From Escherichia coli (GTDB taxonomy: Bacteria > Pseudomonadota > Gammaproteobacteria > Enterobacterales > Enterobacteriaceae), in assembly GCF_044647545.1 (NCBI RefSeq), contig NZ_CP172818.1: a stretch of 64,000 nucleotides of DNA; one strand, written 5' to 3'. The number at the start of each line of letters is the position of its first letter. The first letter of the stretch is position 1. The notes under the pieces are model-generated. The model searched no databases. It was given only the letters and a program-made list of their open reading frames with translations, and was not told the DNA's origin. Both the position numbers and the translations under genes were made by a program. Of this stretch, positions 28,916 through 46,597 are shown piece by piece.

Positions 28916-29123
28916 TTGCCTGGAACAGGCCGACAACGGCGAGTCACTGCATAACCTGTGGCTGCCCGCCGATGCGCCATTTACGACATTTGAAGGTAAT
29001 GGATTGTTCCGCCATAAGATCTTAATCCAGGCACCGGGTTACCGGTATGAACAGAGCAATCCAGAGCAGCAACCGCTGTGGCATTACGACAGTGCGCCAG
29101 CCGCACCGACATCCACCGGTGAA

Positions 29124-29864
29124 TTAAAAACGCCAGCTCACCCCGGTGACAAAGGTAAAACTCTCATTACGATCAATCATCGGGCTGTCGGTAATCTCTT
29201 CCGGCAGCTCGCTGTATCCTGCGCTCGCCATCAATACGACGTGCTCTCCTATCGGGTATTTTGCCGTCAGGCTGACATAGGGCACCCAGGCATCCTGCGC
29301 GGAATAACTTGCCAGACCGCTACGACGGGACTCACTCTCTGAAATGCCATAGTAATAGTCACTGAAATTCTCGTCATAATAGAGAACGCCCAGCGCAGGT
29401 GTCAGCGACAGACGACCTATCTGCATTTTGTGGAATACCGATAGCTCCCCCACCCAGCCGTTGCTGTTATCCAGAACGTCCGCAGCTGCAGAGGCTTTCA
29501 CGGTTCCCCAACGCTCGTGGTGATACCAGGCAACCCCCGCCATAGCCGTACTATCACGCTTATCAAGCTGTTGCATGGCATAATCGTCATTATCGGTAGG
29601 GTCAAATTCCAGCGGCATCCAGGATGCGGTCAGGCTAAGTTCATTTTTTTCACTTTGCGACAGAATAAAACCTAACGTGGTCTGACGAACATAAAAAGTA
29701 TCACCTTCATAACTAATCAGCGGAATTGCCTTCGTATTTTCATTATAACCGCGATAAGGCGATTCATTATAAGCCGCACCAGCACCAATGGATAATTCAG
29801 AAGCAGTTGCGCTTGCCATAAAAGGCAACGCAAATAACGCCACAATATTGCGATTAATTAACAT
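29124..29864 (-). CDS. yiaT: Outer membrane protein (MipA/OmpV family)
   Basis: 246-aa ORF with signal peptide, beta-strand-like alternation and C-terminal F. Confidence 0.88.
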   Translation of the reverse strand: MLINRNIVALFALPFMASATASELSIGAGAAYNESPYRGYNENTKAIPLISYEGDTFYVRQTTLGFILSQSEKNELSLTASWMPLEFDPTDNDDYAMQQLDKRDSTAMAGVAWYHHERWGTVKASAAADVLDNSNGWVGELSVFHKMQIGRLSLTPALGVLYYDENFSDYYYGISESESRRSGLASYSAQDAWVPYVSLTAKYPIGEHVVLMASAGYSELPEEITDSPMIDRNESFTFVTGVSWRF

Positions 29865-29987
29865 GTCCGGTATTCCATTTTAAAATAAGATAAAAAAGAG
29901 TCGGCATAATAATGCTTACAATTTCTCCGGTGCAAGATTCATATTTATATAGTAATATATAAAATTATATATAATTGGGCTGTTGCG

Positions 29988-30962
29988 ATGACAAAATTAC
30001 AACTTAAGTACCGGGAGTTAAAAATTATCTCGGTAATCGCTGCCAGTGAAAATATCAGCCATGCCGCGACTGTACTTGGCATCGCACAGGCCAACGTCAG
30101 CAAATATCTTGCTGATTTTGAATCAAAAGTGGGTTTAAAAGTCTTTGACCGAACCACCCGGCAGCTGATGCTCACACCTTTTGGCACCGCGCTGTTACCG
30201 TACATCAACGACATGCTGGACAGAAACGAGCAACTTAATAATTTTATTGCAGATTATAAGCATGAGAAACGTGGTCGGGTCACCATCTACGCCCCAACCG
30301 GCATAATTACCTATTTATCCAAACATGTAATCGATAAAATTAAAGATATCGGTGATATCACCTTATCGCTAAAAACCTGCAATCTTGAGCGTAATGCCTT
30401 TTATGAAGGCGTCGAATTTCCTGATGATTGTGATGTTTTAATCAGCTACGCTCCACCAAAAGATGAATCGCTGGTTGCCAGTTTTATTACCCAATATGCC
30501 GTAACCGCTTATGCCAGCCAGCGCTATCTTGAGAAACATCCCATTAGCCGTCCTGACGAACTCGAACATCACTCCTGTATTTTGATCGACTCGATGATGA
30601 TCGACGACGCGAATATCTGGCGCTTCAACGTCGCCGGGAGTAAAGAGGTGCGGGATTATCGCGTGAAGGGAAATTACGTTTGCGACAACACGCAATCTGC
30701 GCTGGAGCTGGCACGAAATCACCTGGGGATTGTGTTTGCGCCAGACAAAAGTGTGCAGAGCGACCTGCAAGACGGCACGCTGGTGCCCTGCTTTCAGCAA
30801 CCCTATGAATGGTGGCTGGATCTGGTGGCTATCTTCCGTAAACGGGAATACCAGCCCTGGCGGGTCCAGTATGTGCTGGATGAAATGCTGCGTGAAATTC
30901 GCCACCAGCTTGCTCAGTCGCAGCAACTGCGGCCTGAACAAGCGGCGGAAAGCGAAGATTAA
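29988..30962 (+). CDS. yiaU: LysR-family transcriptional regulator
   Basis: 324-aa ORF with N-terminal LysR HTH; divergent-convergent with yiaT/yiaV. Confidence 0.9.
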
Positions 30963-32095
30963 TGATCGAGATAAAGGTAATGCACCCAGCTGGTCATGCG
31001 TAATAGCACTTTGCGCATCACCGAGACATGGCTGAAATGATCAGAGTAAACCGCCACCTGGGCGTAAATACCGTCTGGTAAAGCGCTCAAATCAGTGTGC
31101 TCATCCAGTTCAATGGTCGCGATAACGCCATCTGAACCCGGCGCTGTGTTTAACGTCTGTAAGGTGCCGGTCGACTGATAAGCTCCGCCGGGAACGGCTG
31201 GACTAATGGCTGCCAGCTTACCGCTGAATACCTTACCTGGCAGAGCATTAAACACCACTTCCGCATCGTCGCCAGGAGCCAGTCGCAGCAAGGAGTTCTG
31301 ACGGAACTGCGCCACGATTTGTCGTTTCTGATCGGGTATAAACACCATCACCGGACGTAGCGGCAGCGACGCGGCATAGGTACCCGGACGAATCAGTACC
31401 TGGGTCACATAACCATCGCTCGGCGCACGCACTATCGTCTGCTCAAGGTTATATTTTGCTTCCGCGAGCTGTGCTTTCAGGCTGGCGATTTGAGAATGTT
31501 CACCCAACACCAGGCTATCCAGCTGGCTCTGGATCTGTTTTTGTTCCGCCGCCGATGACTTCACGGAGGCTTCCTGCGCCAGATAATTTTGCCGCGCCAC
31601 ATCGATATCGCGTTCTGAAAACGGGTTTACTTTCGCCTGGCTGCCACGTGCGTAACGCTGATACTCTTTAGCGAATTTATCCCGCGTGGCCTTTGCCTGC
31701 TGAGTATTCGCCGCCATCTCATCTAACTCTGCGCCCAACGCCCGCTGTTTATGTTCTGCGGTAACGATATCCGCCATCAGCCGATCCACCCGCGCCTGAT
31801 AACGCGTCGGGTCCAGTCGAAATAGCACCTCACCTTTTTTAATCAGCGTATTTTTCTTATCCGTCACTTCAATCACCACACCAGTCACCTGTGGGACAAC
31901 AGGAATAGAAATAACCGCTTTTTGCGCTTTAAAGGTATACGGATGGTTATAGTTCATTAACAGAATTAGACCGCTGACAATAAATATGCCACCCAGGGCC
32001 GCTGTGGGAATGGTCCATTTATTTACAGGAATTTTGAAGATCTTAAACATTGCCCATGCAAAAGCCACATAGGTCAAAATAATCAGTAAATCCAT
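30959..32095 (-). CDS. yiaV: HlyD-family membrane fusion protein
   Basis: 378-aa ORF, N-terminal TM, coiled-coil middle; paralog of yibH. Confidence 0.9.
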
Positions 32096-32100
32096 AAGTA

Positions 32101-32326
32101 TTACTCGGCAGAAGAGGTCTTGATGTCGGCGAGCTGTTTCTCCAGCCCGGCAATACGCTGTTGTAGTTGCACAACGCCGGAGGAGTCATGGTTTTGCATT
32201 CCCCATCCCCGCTCCGGGCGGTAAAGCGTGGCCCAAATCCACAAAATGGCCAGATAACATGCAGCGTAAAAAGACTCACCCAACCAGCAACATGAATGGC
32301 GTCGGCATGAGGATGATTACGTTTTG
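32101..32326 (-). pseudogene. yiaW: yiaW (DUF3302 small membrane protein), C-terminal part, separated from its 5' part by IS1
   Basis: Translation ...[46 protein letters not shown] matches the YibI paralog; reading frame runs into the IS1 left end. Confidence 0.8.
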
Positions 32327-32351
32327 GTGATGCTGCCAACTTACTGATTTA

Positions 32352-32657
32352 GTGTATGATGGTGTTTTTGAGGTGCTCCAGTGGCTTCTGTTTCTATCAG
32401 CTGTCCCTCCTGTTCAGCTACTTGACGGGGTGGTGCGTAACGGCAAAAGCACCGCCGGACATCAGCGTTATCTCTGCTCTCACTGCCGTAAAACATGGCA
32501 ACTGCAGTTCACTTACACCGCTTCTCAACCCGGTACGCACCAGAAAATCATTGATATGGCCATGAATGGCGTTGGATGCCGGGCAACCGCCCGCATTATG
32601 GGCGTTGGCCTCAACGCGATTTTACGTCACTTAAAAAACTCAGGCCGCAGTCGGTAA
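32352..32657 (+). CDS. insA: IS1 InsA-like ORF (body in frame with ...[23 protein letters not shown]...; N-terminus out of frame with the canonical GTG start at 32381)
   Basis: ORF-track translation; canonical-looking start GTG 32381 [14 protein letters not shown] reaches TGA at 32423. Confidence 0.7.
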
Positions 32658-33079
32658 CCTCGCGCATACAGCCGGGCAGTGACGTCATCGTCTGCGCGGA
32701 AATGGACGAACAGTGGGGCTATGTCGGGGCTAAATCGCGCCAGCGCTGGCTGTTTTACGCGTATGACAGGCTCCGGAAGACGGTTGTTGCGCACGTATTC
32801 GGTGAACGCACTATGGCGACGCTGGGGCGTCTTATGAGCCTGCTGTCACCCTTTGACGTGGTGATATGGATGACGGATGGCTGGCCGCTGTATGAATCCC
32901 GCCTGAAGGGAAAGCTGCACGTAATCAGCAAGCGATATACGCAGCGAATTGAGCGGCATAACCTGAATCTGAGGCAGCACCTGGCACGGCTGGGACGGAA
33001 GTCGCTGTCGTTCTCAAAATCGGTGGAGCTGCATGACAAAGTCATCGGGCATTATCTGAACATAAAACACTATCAATAA
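32576..33079 (+). CDS. insB: IS1 InsB transposase frame
   Basis: 167-aa ORF ...[21 protein letters not shown]...[48 protein letters not shown]. Confidence 0.85.
32631..32641 (+). promoter_or_regulatory. IS1 programmed -1 ribosomal frameshift motif (A6C) joining insA and insB
   Basis: ttaaaaaactc at the insA/insB junction. Confidence 0.6.
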
Positions 33080-33094
33080 GTTGGAGTCATTACC

Positions 33095-33204
33095 TTACGT
33101 TTTTTAGCAATCAGGTAGGGAATATCATGTAAAATAATAATCCCATAGAATATCACCAGAAATACAAAAATAAGCACTCCCAGTGCAAAATAGTCCAGGA
33201 ACAT
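33095..33204 (-). pseudogene. yiaW: yiaW 5' part ([37 protein letters not shown]...), separated from the 3' part by IS1
   Basis: Reverse complement of 33104-33204 encodes the N-terminus homologous to YibI; joining the two parts minus one TSD copy restores a 109-codon frame. Confidence 0.8.
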
Positions 33205-33317
33205 ATTTCCCTCAAAGAATATAAAAAAGAACAATTAACGCATATTATGAAATGCCATGATGCAGTGCAACTTCCTTATTTATATAACGACATATTGTTT
33301 TTTATATACTTTCTGAA

Positions 33318-33530
33318 ATGTGCTGTCTGGTTTTTCAACAGGACGAGGTTTATCATATTGAAATAGTGGAACTATTGGCCAAACTAATGAATAACTCCAG
33401 TAAAACATCCACAGTACAGATTAAGCGTATTAAACCTTCAATTATCTACCGTTTATTGCTGATTGGCCTCGGATCACCAATGGTGATTTACGGCCTGGTT
33501 CGCCCGCTAACCATCGAAACGCGAGATTAA
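33318..33530 (+). CDS. Hypothetical small ORF with a C-terminal hydrophobic segment (possible small membrane protein)
   Basis: 70-aa ORF; internal Met gives a 47-aa peptide MNNSSKTSTVQIKRIKPSIIYRLLLIGLGSPMVIYGLV...; no recognisable homology. Confidence 0.2.
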   Translation: MCCLVFQQDEVYHIEIVELLAKLMNNSSKTSTVQIKRIKPSIIYRLLLIGLGSPMVIYGLVRPLTIETRD

Positions 33531-40133: not shown

Positions 40134-40742
40134 TCAAGCCTTTGGCGGTTCGGTGCGAGCAAAACTTTCGCGGCTAAACAGGTTTTCGACCAGTTTGACT
40201 AAGTGTGGGCGGTCGACACACCAGCCTGGCGCAACGCGGCGGAAATTGAGATATCCGACGGCACAGGCAATGGCGATAGTCGCCAGATTGACCGTATCGG
40301 TTTTGAGCGTGCCATCGACCAGATATCCTTCCAGCACATCCAGACTGCGGTTGATTTTCTCCCGCTGGCGTAACAATTCATCTTCAGACTGCTGCGCCGC
40401 CGGACGCGCCTGTTCACGCACCGATACCAGCCCGGCATCCATAATGCCATCCGCCAGTGCCTCAATTTTGCGCACTCGCAACGACTCCAGCGGATCGCGC
40501 GGCAACATCGCCGGAGCGACATTCATTAATTCAATATATTCAGCGATGATCGCCGAATCAAACCAACATTCACCCTCTTCGGTCACCAGCACCGGCACTT
40601 TCCCTAACGGGTTAAATTGCGCCACGCCGTTGTCCGCGTTATAGGGCAGTTCATTAATAAATTCGAAAGTTATGCCCTTTTCTAACAACAGAATAGAAAG
40701 TTTGCGTACAAACGGGCTGGTGTAGCTACCGACGAGTTTCAT
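40134..40742 (-). CDS. yibF: Glutathione S-transferase-like protein
   Basis: 202-aa ORF with GST fold pattern. Confidence 0.88.
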
Positions 40743-40970: not shown

Positions 40971-43900
40971 ATGAGCGGAAAACCGGCGGCGCGTCAGGGC
41001 GACATGACGCAGTATGGCGGTAGCATTGTCCAGGGTTCAGCCGGGGTACGTATTGGTGCCCCCACCGGCGTGGCCTGTTCGGTGTGCCCCGGCGGAGTAA
41101 CGTCCGGCCATCCGGTCAATCCGCTGCTCGGTGCAAAGGTCCTTCCCGGCGAGACAGACATCGCCCTGCCCGGCCCGCTGCCGTTCATTCTCTCCCGCAC
41201 CTACAGCAGTTACCGGACAAAAACGCCCGCGCCGGTGGGGAGCCTCGGCCCCGGCTGGAAAATGCCTGCGGATATCCGCTTACAGCTGCGCGATAACACA
41301 CTGATACTCAGTGATAACGGCGGCAGAAGCCTGTATTTTGAGCACCTGTTTCCCGGTGAGGACGGTTACAGCCGCAGCGAGTCACTCTGGCTGGTGCGCG
41401 GCGGCGTGGCGAAACTGGATGAAGGTCACCGGCTGGCCGCACTCTGGCAGGCGCTGCCGGAAGAGCTTCGCCTGAGTCCGCATCGTTATCTGGCGACGAA
41501 CAGTCCACAGGGGCCGTGGTGGGTACTCGGCTGGTGTGAGCGGGTGCCGGAGGCGGATGAGGTGCTGCCTGCGCCGCTGCCGCCGTACCGGGTACTGACC
41601 GGGCTGGTGGACCGCTTCGGGCGCACACAGACGTTCCACCGTGAGGCTGGCGGCGAATTCAGCGGCGAAATCACCGGCGTGACGGATGGCGCAGGCCGTC
41701 ACTTCCGGCTGGTACTGACCACGCAGGCGCTGCGGGCAGAAGAGGCCCGGCAGAAGGCCATTTCCGGCGGGACGGAACCGTCCGCTTTTCCTGATACCCT
41801 GCCGGACTACACGGAATATGGCCGGGACAACGGTATCCGTCTGTCTGCCGTGTGGCTGACACACGACCCTGAATACCCGGAGAATTTACCTGCCGCGCCG
41901 CTGGTGCGCTATGGCTGGACGCCACGCGGCGAACTGGCGGTGGTGTATGACCGCAGCAATACACAGGTGCGCAGCTTTACTTACGATGATAAATACCGGG
42001 GCCGGATGGTGGCGCACCGTCACACGGGCCGGCCGGAAATCCGTTACCGTTACGACAGTGACGGGCGGGTGACAGAACAGCTAAACCCGGCAGGCTTAAG
42101 CTACACGTATCAGTATGAGAAAGACCGCATCACCATCACCGACAGCCTGGACCGCCGTGAAGTCCTGCATACCGCAGGCGAAGGCGGCCTGAAGCGGGTG
42201 GTGAAAAAGGAACACGCGGACGGCAGCGTCACGCAGAGTCAGTTTGACGCGGTGGGCAGGCTTAAGACACAGACGGATGCCGCAGGCCGGACAACAGAAT
42301 ACAGCCCGGATGTGGTGACGGGCCTCATCACGCGCATCACCACGCCGGATGGCAGGGCATCGGCGTTTTACTATAACCACCACAGCCAGTTAACGTCAGC
42401 CACCGGGCCTGACGGGCTGGAAATACGCCGGGAATATGATGAATCCGGCCGTCTGATTCAGGAAACCGCCCCTGACGGCGATATCACCCGCTACCGTTAT
42501 GATAATCCACACAGTGACTTCCCCTGCGCAACGGAAGATGCCACCGGCAGCCGGAAAACCATGACGTGGAGCCGTTACGGTCAGTTGCTGAGCTTCACCG
42601 ACTGTTCCGGCTACCAGACCCGTTATGACCATGACCGCTTCGGGCAGATGACGGCGGTGCACCGCGAGGAAGGCCTGAGCCAGTGCCGCGCATACGACAG
42701 CCGTGGACAGTTAATTGCCGTGAAAGACACGCAGGGCCATGAAACGCGGTATGAATACAACATCGCCGGTGACCTGACCGCCGTCATTGCCCCGGACGGC
42801 AGCAGAAACGGGACACAGTACGATGCGTGGGGAAAGGCCATCCGTACCACGCAGGGCGGGCTGACCCGCAGTATGGAATACGATGCTGCAGGACGGGTCA
42901 TCCGCCTGACAAACGAAAACGGCAGCCACACCACCTTCCGTTACGATGTACTCGACCGGCTGATACAGGAAACCGGCTTTGACGGCCGCACACAGCGTTA
43001 CCACCACGACCTGACCGGCAAACTTATCCGCAGCGAGGATGAGGGGCTGGTCACCCACTGGCACTATGACGAAGCAGACCGCATCACGCAGCGAACGGTG
43101 AATGGTGAAACCGCAGAACAGTGGCGGTACGACGAACGCGGCTGGCTGACACAAATCAGCCATCTCAGCGAAGGGCACCGGGTGACGGTGCATTACGGGT
43201 ATGATGAGAAAGGCCGCCTGACCGGTGAGCGCCAGACGGTGCATCATCCGCAGACGGAAGCACTGCTCTGGCAGCATGAGACCAGACATGCGTACAACGC
43301 GCAGGGGCTGGCGAACCGCTGTATACCGGACAACCTGCCCGCCGTGGAATGGCTGACTTATGGCAGTGGTTACCTGGCAGGGATGAAACTCGGCGACACA
43401 CCGCTGGTGGAGTACACCCGCGACCGCCTGCACCGGGAAACGCTGCGCAGCTTCGGCCGTTATGAACTCACCACCGCTTATACCCCTGCCGGGCAGTTAC
43501 AGAGCCAGCACCTGAACAGCCTGCAGTATGACCGCGATTACACCTGGAACGACAACGGCGAACTCATTCGCATCAGCAGCCCGCGCCAGACCCGGAGTTA
43601 CAGCTACAGCGACTCCGGCAGGCTGACCGGCGTTCACACCACCGCAGCGAACCTGGATATCCGCATCCCGTATGCCACGGACCCGGCAGGTAACCGCCTG
43701 CCCGACCCGGAGCTGCACCCGGACAGCACCCTCAGCATGTGGCCGGATAACCGTATCGCCCGTGACGCGCACTATCTTTACCGGTATGACCGTCACGGCA
43801 GGCTGACGGAGAAAACCGACCTCATCCCGGAAGGGGTTATCCGCACGGATGATGAGCGGACTCACCGGTACCATTACGACAGCCGGCACCGGCTGGTGCA

Positions 43901-44750
43901 CTACACGCGGACACAATATGCAGAGCCGCTGGTCGAAAGTCGCTATCTTTACGACCCGCTGGGCCGCAGGGTGGCAAAACGGGTGTGGCGGCGTGAACGG
44001 GACCTGACGGGCTGGATGTCGCTGTCACGGAAACCGGAAGTGACCTGGTACGGCTGGGACGGCGACCGCCTGACCACGATACAGAACGACAGAACCCGCA
44101 TCCAGACGGTTTATCAGCCGGGGAGCTTCACACCACTCATCAGGGTCGAAACCGCCACCGGTGAGCAGGCGAAAACGCAGCGCCGCAGCCTGGCGGATGC
44201 GCTTCAGCAGTCCGGCGGCGAAGACGGTGGCAGTGTGGTGTTCCCGCCGGTGCTGGTGCAGATGCTCGACCGGCTGGAAAGTGAAATCCTTACTGACCGG
44301 GTGAGTGAGGAAAGCCGCCGCTGGCTGGCATCGTGCGGCCTGACGGTGGCGCAGATGCAAAACCAGATGGACCCGGTGTACACGCCGGCGCGAAAAATCC
44401 ACCTGTACCACTGCGACCATCGCGGCCTGCCGCTGGCGCTTGTCAGCACGGAAGGGGCAACAGAATGGTGCGCAGAATACGATGAGTGGGGCAACCTGCT
44501 GAATGAAGAGAACCCGCACCAGCTGCAACAGCTTATCCGCCTGCCGGGTCAGCAGTATGATGAGGAGTCCGGCCTGTATTACAACCGCCACCGCTATTAT
44601 GACCCGCTGCAGGGGCGGTATATCACTCAGGATCCGATTGGGCTGAAGGGGGGATGGAATTTTTATCAGTATCCGTTGAATCCGATATCAGACATCGAGC
44701 CCCCTGGGTTTATCTATGTGGGAGGATGCAAAATCGGGGGCATGTACTAA
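40971..44750 (+). CDS. rhsA: Rhs-family polymorphic toxin core protein: N-terminal PAAR motif, YD repeats, Rhs core; very short 12-residue tail after an EPPGF motif
   Basis: 1259-aa ORF; N-terminus [26 protein letters not shown] (PAAR); many YD/YxYD repeats; ends ...[39 protein letters not shown]. Confidence 0.92.
44238..44686 (+). repeat. Rhs core 3'-end repeat, copy A (inside rhsA)
   Basis: About 450 bp near-identical to 46623-47069 at a constant offset of about 2384 bp. Confidence 0.9.
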
Positions 44751-45754
44751 TGGTCTTTGCGGCATATCAGCTGTGATGAGAGGTGCATAAGTTTTTCATA
44801 GACCGCATATGACGCCTTAATAACAATAAAATTAAAATATATTTTCAATAAAATCAATAGCCAAATAAAATAAATAAATAAATTTTCCCTGCACCTAGAA
44901 CGTGGAGAAAGTTAGTACATACTATGGATGCAATAGCATTGACATAATGGTGGGACGAATATTTTCACTTCGACTAATGTGGTAGATATCAGATTTGGAC
45001 GAAATATTTTAAGCAAAGATGAAAATAATTAAAATAAACAACGAATAAATACCACCCCATTAATAAACAATAGATAACCACGGGAAGGAAATAACAAACG
45101 GAAAAGGATCCGATGCCAGAGTTATCGGTAATATTAAAAAAAAAAATATAAATAAAATAAATAAATTTTATTTAGCACTCCCATTTTTTTTACACAACAT
45201 GGCCATAATAATAATTTTAAAATAATAATGACGGGAAAGAGAGAAAGAAGGTAAACTGTAAAAGGATTACAAAAATTTGGTCTACAAATACAGGTTATAG
45301 TAAAAAAATATTTTTTAGAATTTATTGTATCTTTTTTTTTTTACAACAACACAGGTCGCAGTGTAATTACAGAGATATTAAAATAATGCTCAAATTTATG
45401 AAGCAGTGAGGCAGAAGAATATACATATAAACGCTTCATTAAAACAAGTGGGTAATTTGGTTAAAAATAAACTAACATTGAATTACAATATATGTTAAAA
45501 TCAGGCAACCAAAAAGAAAAAATATAAAATATGATTAACAACAAGTCTTGTTGAAGGCACCATTCACTCAGACCAAATTGCTGGTGGGGTTTTTATTAGA
45601 AAATAGGCAAAAATGATGGGGTAATTCTGAATTTTGGCCACGGAAAATAAGTATGTAAGGATAATCAAACATCGTGTGCGCTGATGGCAGAGTAGGTGGA
45701 GGACTCCAGACAGTCAAACGATAAAAAAAGATAGCCTTTATGGAGGCTCCTGCA
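44751..45754. other. Extremely AT-rich block without ORFs of 60 aa or more between rhsA and yibA; contains A11 (45136-45146) and T11 (45332-45342) homopolymers
   Basis: Visibly low GC and low complexity; ORF track shows no ORF on either strand. Confidence 0.8.
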
Positions 45755-46597
45755 ATGTCAAATACATACCAGAAAAGAAAGGCAAGTAAAGAGTATGGTT
45801 TATATAATCAATGTAAGAAACTAAATGATGATGAATTATTTCGCTTACTTGATGATCACAATTCCTTGAAAAGGATTTCATCTGCCAGAGTATTACAGTT
45901 AAGAGGTGGGCAAGACGCTGTTAGATTGGTAATTGAGTTCTGCTCTGATAAAAATTATATCCGTAGAGATATCGGAGCATTTATACTCGGGCAAATAAAA
46001 ATTTGCAAAAAATGCGAAGATAATGTGTTTAATATTTTGAACAATATGGCATTGAATGATAAGAGCGCTTGCGTTCGAGCTACGGCAATCGAGTCAACGG
46101 CTCAGCGATGCAAGAAAAACCCAATTTATTCACCTAAAATAGTAGAACAATCTCAAATTACTGCTTTTGATAAATCGACTAATGTCAGACGTGCTACAGC
46201 ATTTGCTATTTCTGTTATCAATGATAAAGCAACAATTCCACTATTGATTAATCTGTTAAAAGATCCAAATGGAGATGTCAGAAACTGGGCCGCATTTGCA
46301 ATAAATATCAATAAATATGATAATAGTGATATTAGGGATTGTTTTGTGGAGATGCTTCAGGATAAAAATGAGGAAGTCCGTATTGAAGCAATAATCGGAC
46401 TTTCCTACAGAAAAGATAAAAGGGTTTTATCTGTTTTATGCGATGAGTTAAAAAAAAATACTGTTTATGATGATATCATTGAAGCTGCGGGTGAATTAGG
46501 TGATAAAACGCTACTTCCTGTTTTAGATACTATGTTGTACAAGTTTGATGACAATGAAATTATAACTTCCGCTATTGATAAGCTGAAGCGTTCATAG
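45755..46597 (+). CDS. yibA: HEAT-repeat protein YibA
   Basis: ORF 45740..46597; start set at MSNTYQKRKASKEYGLYNQ giving 280 aa; repeated helical-repeat pattern. Confidence 0.85.
   Translation: MSNTYQKRKASKEYGLYNQCKKLNDDELFRLLDDHNSLKRISSARVLQLRGGQDAVRLVIEFCSDKNYIRRDIGAFILGQIKICKKCEDNVFNILNNMALNDKSACVRATAIESTAQRCKKNPIYSPKIVEQSQITAFDKSTNVRRATAFAISVINDKATIPLLINLLKDPNGDVRNWAAFAININKYDNSDIRDCFVEMLQDKNEEVRIEAIIGLSYRKDKRVLSVLCDELKKNTVYDDIIEAAGELGDKTLLPVLDTMLYKFDDNEIITSAIDKLKRS

Follow-up and report, generated by a model that had tools for sequence, protein, structure and literature searches.

The stretch of DNA analysed here, referred to as the window, comprises 64,000 nucleotides of an Escherichia coli contig (NZ_CP172818.1). 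It contains an rhs gene, the product of which starts with a sequence related to the PAAR proteins that belong to type VI secretion systems (T6SS). The gene is an open reading frame (ORF) on the plus strand (40971-44750) and translates into 1259 amino acids. It is located at the E. coli rhsA locus (selB-selA-yibF, rhs, yibA ... yibH-yibI-mtlA). The 4.1 kb of backbone formed by selB-selA-yibF are 100% identical to genomes of sequence type 648 (ST648, phylogroup F-like), and residues 1-100 of the Rhs protein are identical to RhsA of K-12 MG1655. The rhs gene, its parts and its upstream neighbour are arranged as follows.

40134-40742, minus strand: yibF, glutathione S-transferase, divergent upstream neighbour of rhs (Pfam GST domains; annotation)
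40971-44708, plus strand: RHS element core protein forming the YD-repeat shell (NF041261; RHS_repeat; best solved homologue Tse5, 8cp6)
40971-41111, plus strand: N-terminal fragment, residues 1-47, probable equivalent of the Tse5 N-terminal fragment (translation, partial PAAR matches, conservation and the position of Tse5 M1-K47, PMC10684867)
40974-41057, plus strand: predicted single PAAR repeat, residues 2-29 (partial matches to PAAR profiles and structures)
41058-41111, plus strand: linker with the conserved ACSxCPGG motif, residues 30-47 (conservation)
41106-41339, plus strand: DUF6531, N-terminal plug of the Rhs shell, residues 46-123 (Pfam PF20148, 66 bits)
41109-41135, plus strand: putative N-terminal autocleavage site H47/P48, PVNPLLGAK (alignment to Tse5 8cp6_B; invariance in 20 relatives)
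Residues 1170-1246 of the window Rhs, plus strand: Rhs_assc_core (profile match)

The equivalog model for RHS core proteins (NCBIfam NF041261) matches residues 1-1246 with 2627 bits (cut-off 2000) and is covered from position 1 to 1260 of 1261. RHS_repeat matches are found in 13 stretches of the protein. An in-frame stop is present five codons upstream of the start codon, and the spacer between yibF and rhs is short (228 bp) and low in GC (38%). Thus, the N-terminus is no longer than annotated. A hidden N-terminal extension was considered and rejected, as the AT-rich spacer has no coding potential upstream of the start.

The PAAR-related N-terminus

The initial annotation described a PAAR-like peptide and took it as a mark of loading onto a T6SS spike. 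This peptide corresponds to residues 4-29 (40980-41057). The P-A-A-R signature and the subsequent strand pattern GD..GG..GS..V.IG are present. A domain search recovered the PAAR fold only in part, since all matches are below threshold and restricted to the last repeat. Pfam PAAR_motif (PF05488) aligns residues 2-20 to positions 51-69 of 70 with 16.8-18.3 bits (E 0.003-0.008; gathering score 27). NCBIfam T6SS_PAAR_dom (NF033420) aligns residues 2-29 to positions 68-94 of 94 with 16.4 bits (E 0.0075; cut-off 124). Likewise, residues 2-29 match only the last repeat of solved PAAR structures (9rce_c, E 9e-4; 4jiv_D, E 0.011; 4jiw_D; 8gra_J), with the matched segment extending from residue 67/71 to residue 93/98. 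Since the scores are below both curated thresholds and the matches cover only the last third of the profiles and structures, the relationship to PAAR is retained but the region is not a full PAAR domain. Judged by homology, residues 2-29 are a single PAAR repeat of ~28 residues, which amounts to about one third of the PAAR cone and is homologous to its third blade.

The same organization is found in relatives of the protein. A search of 1.84 billion representative proteins with residues 1-130 yielded 473 relatives. Of the best 150 of these, most start as the window Rhs does, with P-V-N-P-x-L-G-A-K at residues 47-52 and a single PAAR repeat in front of it. In about seven of the best 150, ~60 additional N-terminal residues form two further repeats (three in all), and the three of them that were scanned pass Pfam PAAR_motif with 64-139 bits. 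The window Rhs is collinear with residues 61-207 of one three-repeat relative (51% identity, E 3e-45). Thus, Met1 of the window Rhs corresponds to the start of the third repeat.

Comparison with canonical PAAR proteins (VCA0105 of V. cholerae, 4jiv; c1882 of E. coli, 4jiw) and with the three-repeat relatives P0114 and P0123 reveals the common pattern (G)KPAARxGDxxxxGGxIxxGSxxVxIG. The canonical proteins differ in that they consist of three repeats with ~90 amino acids, which form a cone, whereas the window Rhs has one repeat. Canonical PAARs bind metal through His/Cys of the GDxxxHGG motif. The His of this motif, present in GDTTSHGGSI of SalCis10, is replaced by Tyr15 in the window Rhs and by Lys in the family consensus.

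The initial annotation implied that the PAAR domain is complete and caps the VgrG trimer alone, as in canonical PAAR-Rhs proteins. The literal P-A-A-R and the strand pattern point in this direction, and several papers loosely use the terms 'PAAR domain' or 'PAAR motif' for such N-termini. Nevertheless, a complete domain is highly improbable. Only 29 residues precede the linker, compared with ~90 in a PAAR domain, and relatives with a true PAAR domain are 60 residues longer. The partial and low-scoring profile matches and the substitution of the motif His also argue against it.

The probability that the PAAR-like string arose by chance in an N-terminus rich in Gly and Ala is practically negligible. 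Each single profile match is indeed below threshold, but four independent models or structures place the same residues on the same repeat, and the match to the three-repeat relatives is collinear. Furthermore, key residues do not vary throughout a broad family. In 20 one-repeat relatives with 50-77% identity, these are Arg8, Asp11, Ile19, Gly22, Val26, Gly29 and Gly33. The residues of the putative cleavage site (Pro48, Val49, Asn50, Pro51, Gly54, Ala55 and Lys56) are invariant as well, and the ACSxCP motif of the linker is nearly so. This conservation indicates that the N-terminal tag is under selection.

Comparison with Tse5 and other Rhs effectors

The best solved homologue of the window Rhs is Tse5 of P. 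aeruginosa (PA2684; 8cp6, E 5e-126). Residues 48-146 align to residues 1-96 of chain 8cp6_B, and residue 48 is equivalent to the first residue of this chain. The cut between Lys47 and Pro48 of Tse5 has been mapped experimentally, and the resulting 47-residue N-terminal fragment is required for export by the VgrG1c spike of the H1-T6SS (PMC10684867). In this fragment, the DUF6531 plug fixes residues 30-47 in the interior of the shell, and residues 1-29 are disordered or flexible (PMC10684867). Fragments of this type have also been termed a 'cryptic PAAR-like domain' (PMC7376260). In the window Rhs, His47/Pro48 is probably the N-terminal cleavage site, and residues 1-47 most likely represent a loading fragment of the Tse5 type that is predicted to be cleaved and to bind VgrG. 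The chain of the Tse5 fragment is not detected by a sequence search with the N-terminus of the window Rhs (phmmer). The equivalence is based on the matching position and architecture instead of sequence identity within residues 1-47.

The window Rhs and Tse5 agree in layout residue by residue. They share the 47-residue N-terminal fragment, the 47/48 site PVNPxLG.K, the DUF6531 plug, the YD-repeat shell and the C-terminal aspartyl-protease plug. In both, the fragment is the only element in front of the shell, and neither transmembrane helices nor an Eag chaperone are present. The genetic context is also similar, as vgrG1c adjoins tse5 and a vgrG gene adjoins many relatives of the window rhs. 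There are three differences. The N-terminal fragment of Tse5 does not contain the literal letters P-A-A-R (PMC9637101), whereas the window Rhs has them. Tse5 carries a pore-forming toxin, whereas the window copy has no toxin. Finally, tse5 is encoded beside its VgrG and the window rhs is not.

The class I Rhs effectors with prePAAR motif and Eag chaperone (RhsA of P. protegens, 7q97; Rhs1 of Photorhabdus, 7pq5; RhsA of Serratia) resemble the window Rhs in the N-terminal AARxxD and in the Rhs shell. N- and C-terminal cleavage of the shell and the role as VgrG-dependent T6SS cargo are counted as further similarities. They differ from the window Rhs by the full AARxxDxxxH motif, which ends in Tyr in the window Rhs, by transmembrane helices, by a near-complete PAAR domain and by a gene for a DUF1795 chaperone. 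Residues 1-47 of the window Rhs contain no hydrophobic helix and no further PAAR sequence, and Pfam prePAAR_I gives no match. No DUF1795 (Eag) gene is found beside the window rhs, the upstream gene of which is yibF. RhsB of A. citrulli was set aside as a comparison because it belongs to this other, Eag/prePAAR type.

Linkage to vgrG and probable loading on the T6SS spike

One genome per species was scanned for related loci. The scan covers 80 loci from Enterobacterales and Comamonadaceae, for which ORFs were called and a VgrG hidden Markov model was built from the matches. Linkage was counted in the 70 one-repeat loci for which 700 bp or more of sequence upstream were available. In 33 of these, all from other species, vgrG is located 0-142 bp upstream on the same strand with nothing between vgrG and rhs. 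Thus, there is no room for an Eag chaperone or a separate PAAR gene. Six of the upstream ORFs were verified as VgrG by the Pfam domains Phage_GPD, Phage_base_V and Gp5_trimer_C. In the window, yibF occupies the position that is held by vgrG in the linked loci.

Corresponding junctions exist within the species. A vgrG-rhs junction with an N-terminus that differs at 3 of 47 residues is present in 2698 of 5426 complete E. coli genomes and lies at the yncH/rhsE locus in the example that was examined. A second Escherichia variant of the N-terminus (…MTRKGLD…) is linked to vgrG in 2840 of the 5426 genomes.

In the ST648 relative, a complete structural T6SS cluster is located next to dnaQ-aspV. It consists of hcp, vasL, tssM, tssA, vasI, tssH, dotU and tssK, followed by tssJ, tagH, tssG, tssF, tssE, tssC, tssB and a second hcp. 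At yncH, this relative carries an intact vgrG, which is 97.7% identical to the vgrG paired with the near-identical N-terminus. This vgrG is followed by copies of the insertion sequence (IS) ISAs1 instead of rhs (L090, 24093-29904). Spikes and Rhs cargo have become uncoupled in the ST648 lineage through IS activity.

Taken with the architecture, this linkage makes it likely that residues 1-47 are the N-terminal fragment of a Tse5-type family of T6SS Rhs effectors that are loaded on VgrG, with the machinery provided in trans. The linker (residues 30-47) would run into the interior of the Rhs shell, where the DUF6531 plug would hold it, as in Tse5, and His47/Pro48 would be the counterpart of the N-terminal autocleavage site. 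By analogy to the Tse5 fragment, the exposed single repeat is expected to attach the ~140-kDa Rhs cage to the VgrG spike. The T6SS would then fire the loaded spike into neighbouring cells. Machinery and VgrG are presumed to be encoded elsewhere on the chromosome. The closest complete relative has the dnaQ-aspV cluster and the vgrG at yncH, the latter being the presumable partner. With machinery and VgrG located elsewhere, the rhsA locus would therefore be a 'neighbourless' effector locus that is served in trans. The window copy itself is disarmed, since it has lost both cleavage motif and toxin through a +1 frameshift and is followed by degenerate toxin/immunity DNA.

Both the observation and the question are already present in the literature. 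A review on the E. coli T6SS lists neighbourless Rhs proteins with a PAAR motif as T6SS effectors, with reference to Ma et al. 2017 (PMC6730261). According to the same review, Rhs-CT1, -CT3 and -CT5 are experimentally confirmed antagonistic effectors, and Rhs-CT3 depends on ClpV2 (PMC6730261). Rhs-CT5 is Z5014, the gene at the rhsA locus of EDL933 (PMC7216683). The initial annotation had left open how, or whether, the window Rhs is exported. The vgrG linkage, the T6SS and vgrG of the near-identical relative and the literature on neighbourless Rhs proteins largely answer this question.

Several points weigh against loading on a T6SS spike. As the initial annotation had stated, and as annotation and profile scans confirm, the 64-kb window contains no T6SS genes, including vgrG. 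The place of the vgrG operon behind the second hcp is taken by IS3/IS256 elements in the ST648 relative (L085, NZ_CP008697.1, 1516-3848), so its T6SS is not necessarily active. K-12 carries the same N-terminus as the window Rhs and has no T6SS cluster at aspV (also PMC6730261). Thus, retention of the N-terminus does not need an active T6SS. An in-silico study of enterohaemorrhagic E. coli leaves undecided whether a VgrG carries the rhsA/B/C clade and, if so, which one. The repeat region of Tse5 is not resolved in its structure, and we infer binding of a single repeat to VgrG. An AlphaFold2 model of residues 1-145, based on a 20-sequence alignment, has a mean predicted local distance difference test (pLDDT) score of 52, with values below 50 for residues 1-83, and gives no fold information. 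Finally, the window copy has no toxin, so it is currently no effector.

Alternatively, the Rhs protein could act without any T6SS, either as an intracellular module of the toxin-antitoxin type or after export through the envelope by another route, possibly via the HlyD-family proteins YibH or YiaV. RhsA of K-12 is said to have once been linked to capsule export. HlyD-family genes are present in the window at 50742-51878 and 30959-32095. A report on Salmonella describes Rhs elements as modules similar to type II toxin-antitoxin systems (PMC7043789). The alternative is improbable. The linkage of the family to vgrG is far above chance, and the N-terminus has no hydrophobic run similar to a signal peptide. 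The residue at position -3 of a lipobox in VACS would be Gly. Inspection by eye also led to rejection of GVACS as a signal peptide with lipobox, as the hydrophobic core is missing and the -3 residue is wrong. YibH and YiaV were rejected as exporters, since their genes are on the opposite strand, belong to the backbone that is also fixed in K-12 and are tied to rhs by nothing.

Within the preferred explanation, loading on a VgrG spike, the mode of docking is of interest. Conceivably, members of a large vgrG-linked Rhs family without adjacent PAAR or chaperone gene normally have a single repeat, and the cage is loaded on the spike by a geometry that has not been described. This suggestion is tentative and, taken as a whole, rather unlikely. 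For example, one blade may bind to one face of the VgrG tip, next to a PAAR cap or in place of it; a composite cap made of three Rhs N-termini is another candidate. An AlphaFold2 model of an artificial chain with three copies of residues 2-29 has a pLDDT of 34 and is uninformative; the composite cap gains no support from it. If correct, an undescribed docking geometry would set the number of Rhs cages per spike. How a 29-residue repeat would dock a 140-kDa cage on a three-fold spike is a question for which this family offers a convenient test.

The finding itself changes little, as the motif and the role as T6SS cargo are known and the window copy is disarmed. The useful correction is that the tag represents a third of a PAAR domain and is typical of a broad vgrG-linked Rhs family. 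For annotation, a lack of T6SS genes in the neighbourhood should not be taken to mean that a protein is no T6SS effector.

State of the window copy and other features of the locus

Alignment to the relatives L001 and L002 (intact, near-identical) and comparison with the ST648 genome and with strain CLSC36, in which the gene is intact, show an additional G at 44699, in codon 1243, which results in a +1 frameshift. The boundary motif DIDPLGL is changed to DIEPPGF, and a stop (44748-44750) follows 16 codons later. The frameshift eliminates the cleavage motif, the entire toxin domain and the second catalytic Asp. The first Asp of the protease is maintained in QDPIGL (residue 1221). A PxxxxDPxGL boundary that is followed by a toxin tip and an immunity gene is thus absent from the window copy. 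The loss of the toxin at the boundary of core and toxin was missed in the initial annotation.

Comparison with RhsA of K-12 (b3593), a member of the RhsA-D family, illustrates the difference between core and tip. Both genes are at the same locus, have identical residues 1-100 and match the RHS_core equivalog. RhsA of K-12 has 1377 amino acids and its own toxin tip. The window copy belongs to the lineage with an RhsB-type tip, is frameshifted at codon 1243 and continues into degenerate DNA. In strain CLSC36, an intact RhsB-type gene encoding 1411 amino acids is present at the rhsA locus together with yhhH. The ST648 copy is also annotated as frameshifted, at a different site.

The following features are located downstream of the frameshifted gene.

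44751-45600, plus strand: degenerate remnant of an RhsB-type C-terminal tip and yhhH (28.5% GC, stops in all frames)
45740-46597, plus strand: yibA, HEAT-repeat protein, conserved member of the rhsA element (Pfam HEAT_2; annotation in relatives and K-12)
46639-47148, plus strand: orphan Rhs core fragment, yibJ-like (Pfam RHS PF03527, 59 bits; annotated in relatives as partial RHS protein)
49285-49758, plus strand: orphan Rhs tip with Tlde1 domain (Pfam Tlde1_dom, 33 bits; annotated in relatives)
49763-50284, plus strand: orphan Imm57 immunity protein (Pfam Imm57, 151 bits; annotated in relatives)

The remnant at 44751-45600 is 77-80% identical to relatives with 12-14% gap columns, and its best match in complete E. 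coli genomes has 73% identity over 55% of the length. A second stretch of this kind (47813-49028) is an eroded copy of an ISAs1 region with 23.6% GC. Both low-GC stretches are 71-80% identical to relatives, contain dense single-base insertions and deletions, often with loss of a G or C, and are interrupted by stops in every frame. Neither eroded version occurs in any complete E. coli genome. The flanks of these stretches are virtually identical to relatives. An artefact in the deposited sequence or the import of a decayed allele could explain the eroded stretches. In the former case, the frameshift at 44699 is perhaps an artefact too.

These observations bear on the question of whether the tag has any function here. 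The gene may be a pseudogene that belongs to a selfish Rhs element, has no toxin, is decaying and is not exported, which would make the tag a relic. The loss of the DPLGL cleavage motif and of the toxin through the frameshift fits this explanation, as do the 850 bp of degenerate DNA that follow. The different frameshift site of the ST648 copy and the persistence of the same gene in K-12, which has no T6SS, fit it as well. On the other hand, the core of 1246 residues, N-terminus included, is intact, and its sequence agrees fully or almost fully with that of functional alleles, such as the full-length gene of CLSC36. The degenerate stretch may also be an artefact, in which case the frameshift is perhaps not real. 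A relic is therefore a serious possibility, although not the expected case. It concerns this copy only and is compatible with T6SS loading at the level of the family.

The orphan Tlde1 tip and Imm57 pair (49285-50284) downstream of the main rhs gene is intact. Members of the Tlde1 family are known among T6SS effectors. Recombination with the core gene could re-arm the pair.

Two observations concern VgrG and Rhs sequences in the databases. In the proteins P0122 and P0135, a VgrG N-terminus (MSTGLRFTLEVDG...) is joined directly to the Rhs plug region. These proteins are probably deletion fusions or mis-assemblies of adjacent vgrG and rhs genes. Furthermore, vgrG-rhs sequences similar to those of E. 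coli are found on short contigs (L006, L013, L033 and L076) in metagenome-assembled genomes named Lentisphaerae, Oscillospiraceae, Collinsella and Propionibacteriaceae. Contamination during binning is the likely explanation.

The gene order of the window is glyS-xyl-yiaJ..O-yiaTUV-IS1-aldB-yiaY-selBA-yibF-rhs-yibA-orphan modules-yibHI-mtlADR-lldPRD-trmL-cysE. Two features of the ST648 genome are missing from the window, namely a gene of the Fic family between aldB and yiaY (~35410) and a block of ~5.8 kb with a YadA-like autotransporter between yibL and lldP (~57388-57484). The region 29103-33497 carries yiaT (MipA), yiaU (LysR), yiaV (HlyD family) and an IS1 transposase, as in K-12. At the equivalent position, the ST648 genome, which is otherwise identical, instead carries hicAB and a type I restriction gene together with genes for an AraC regulator, an MFS transporter and a GH127 hydrolase.

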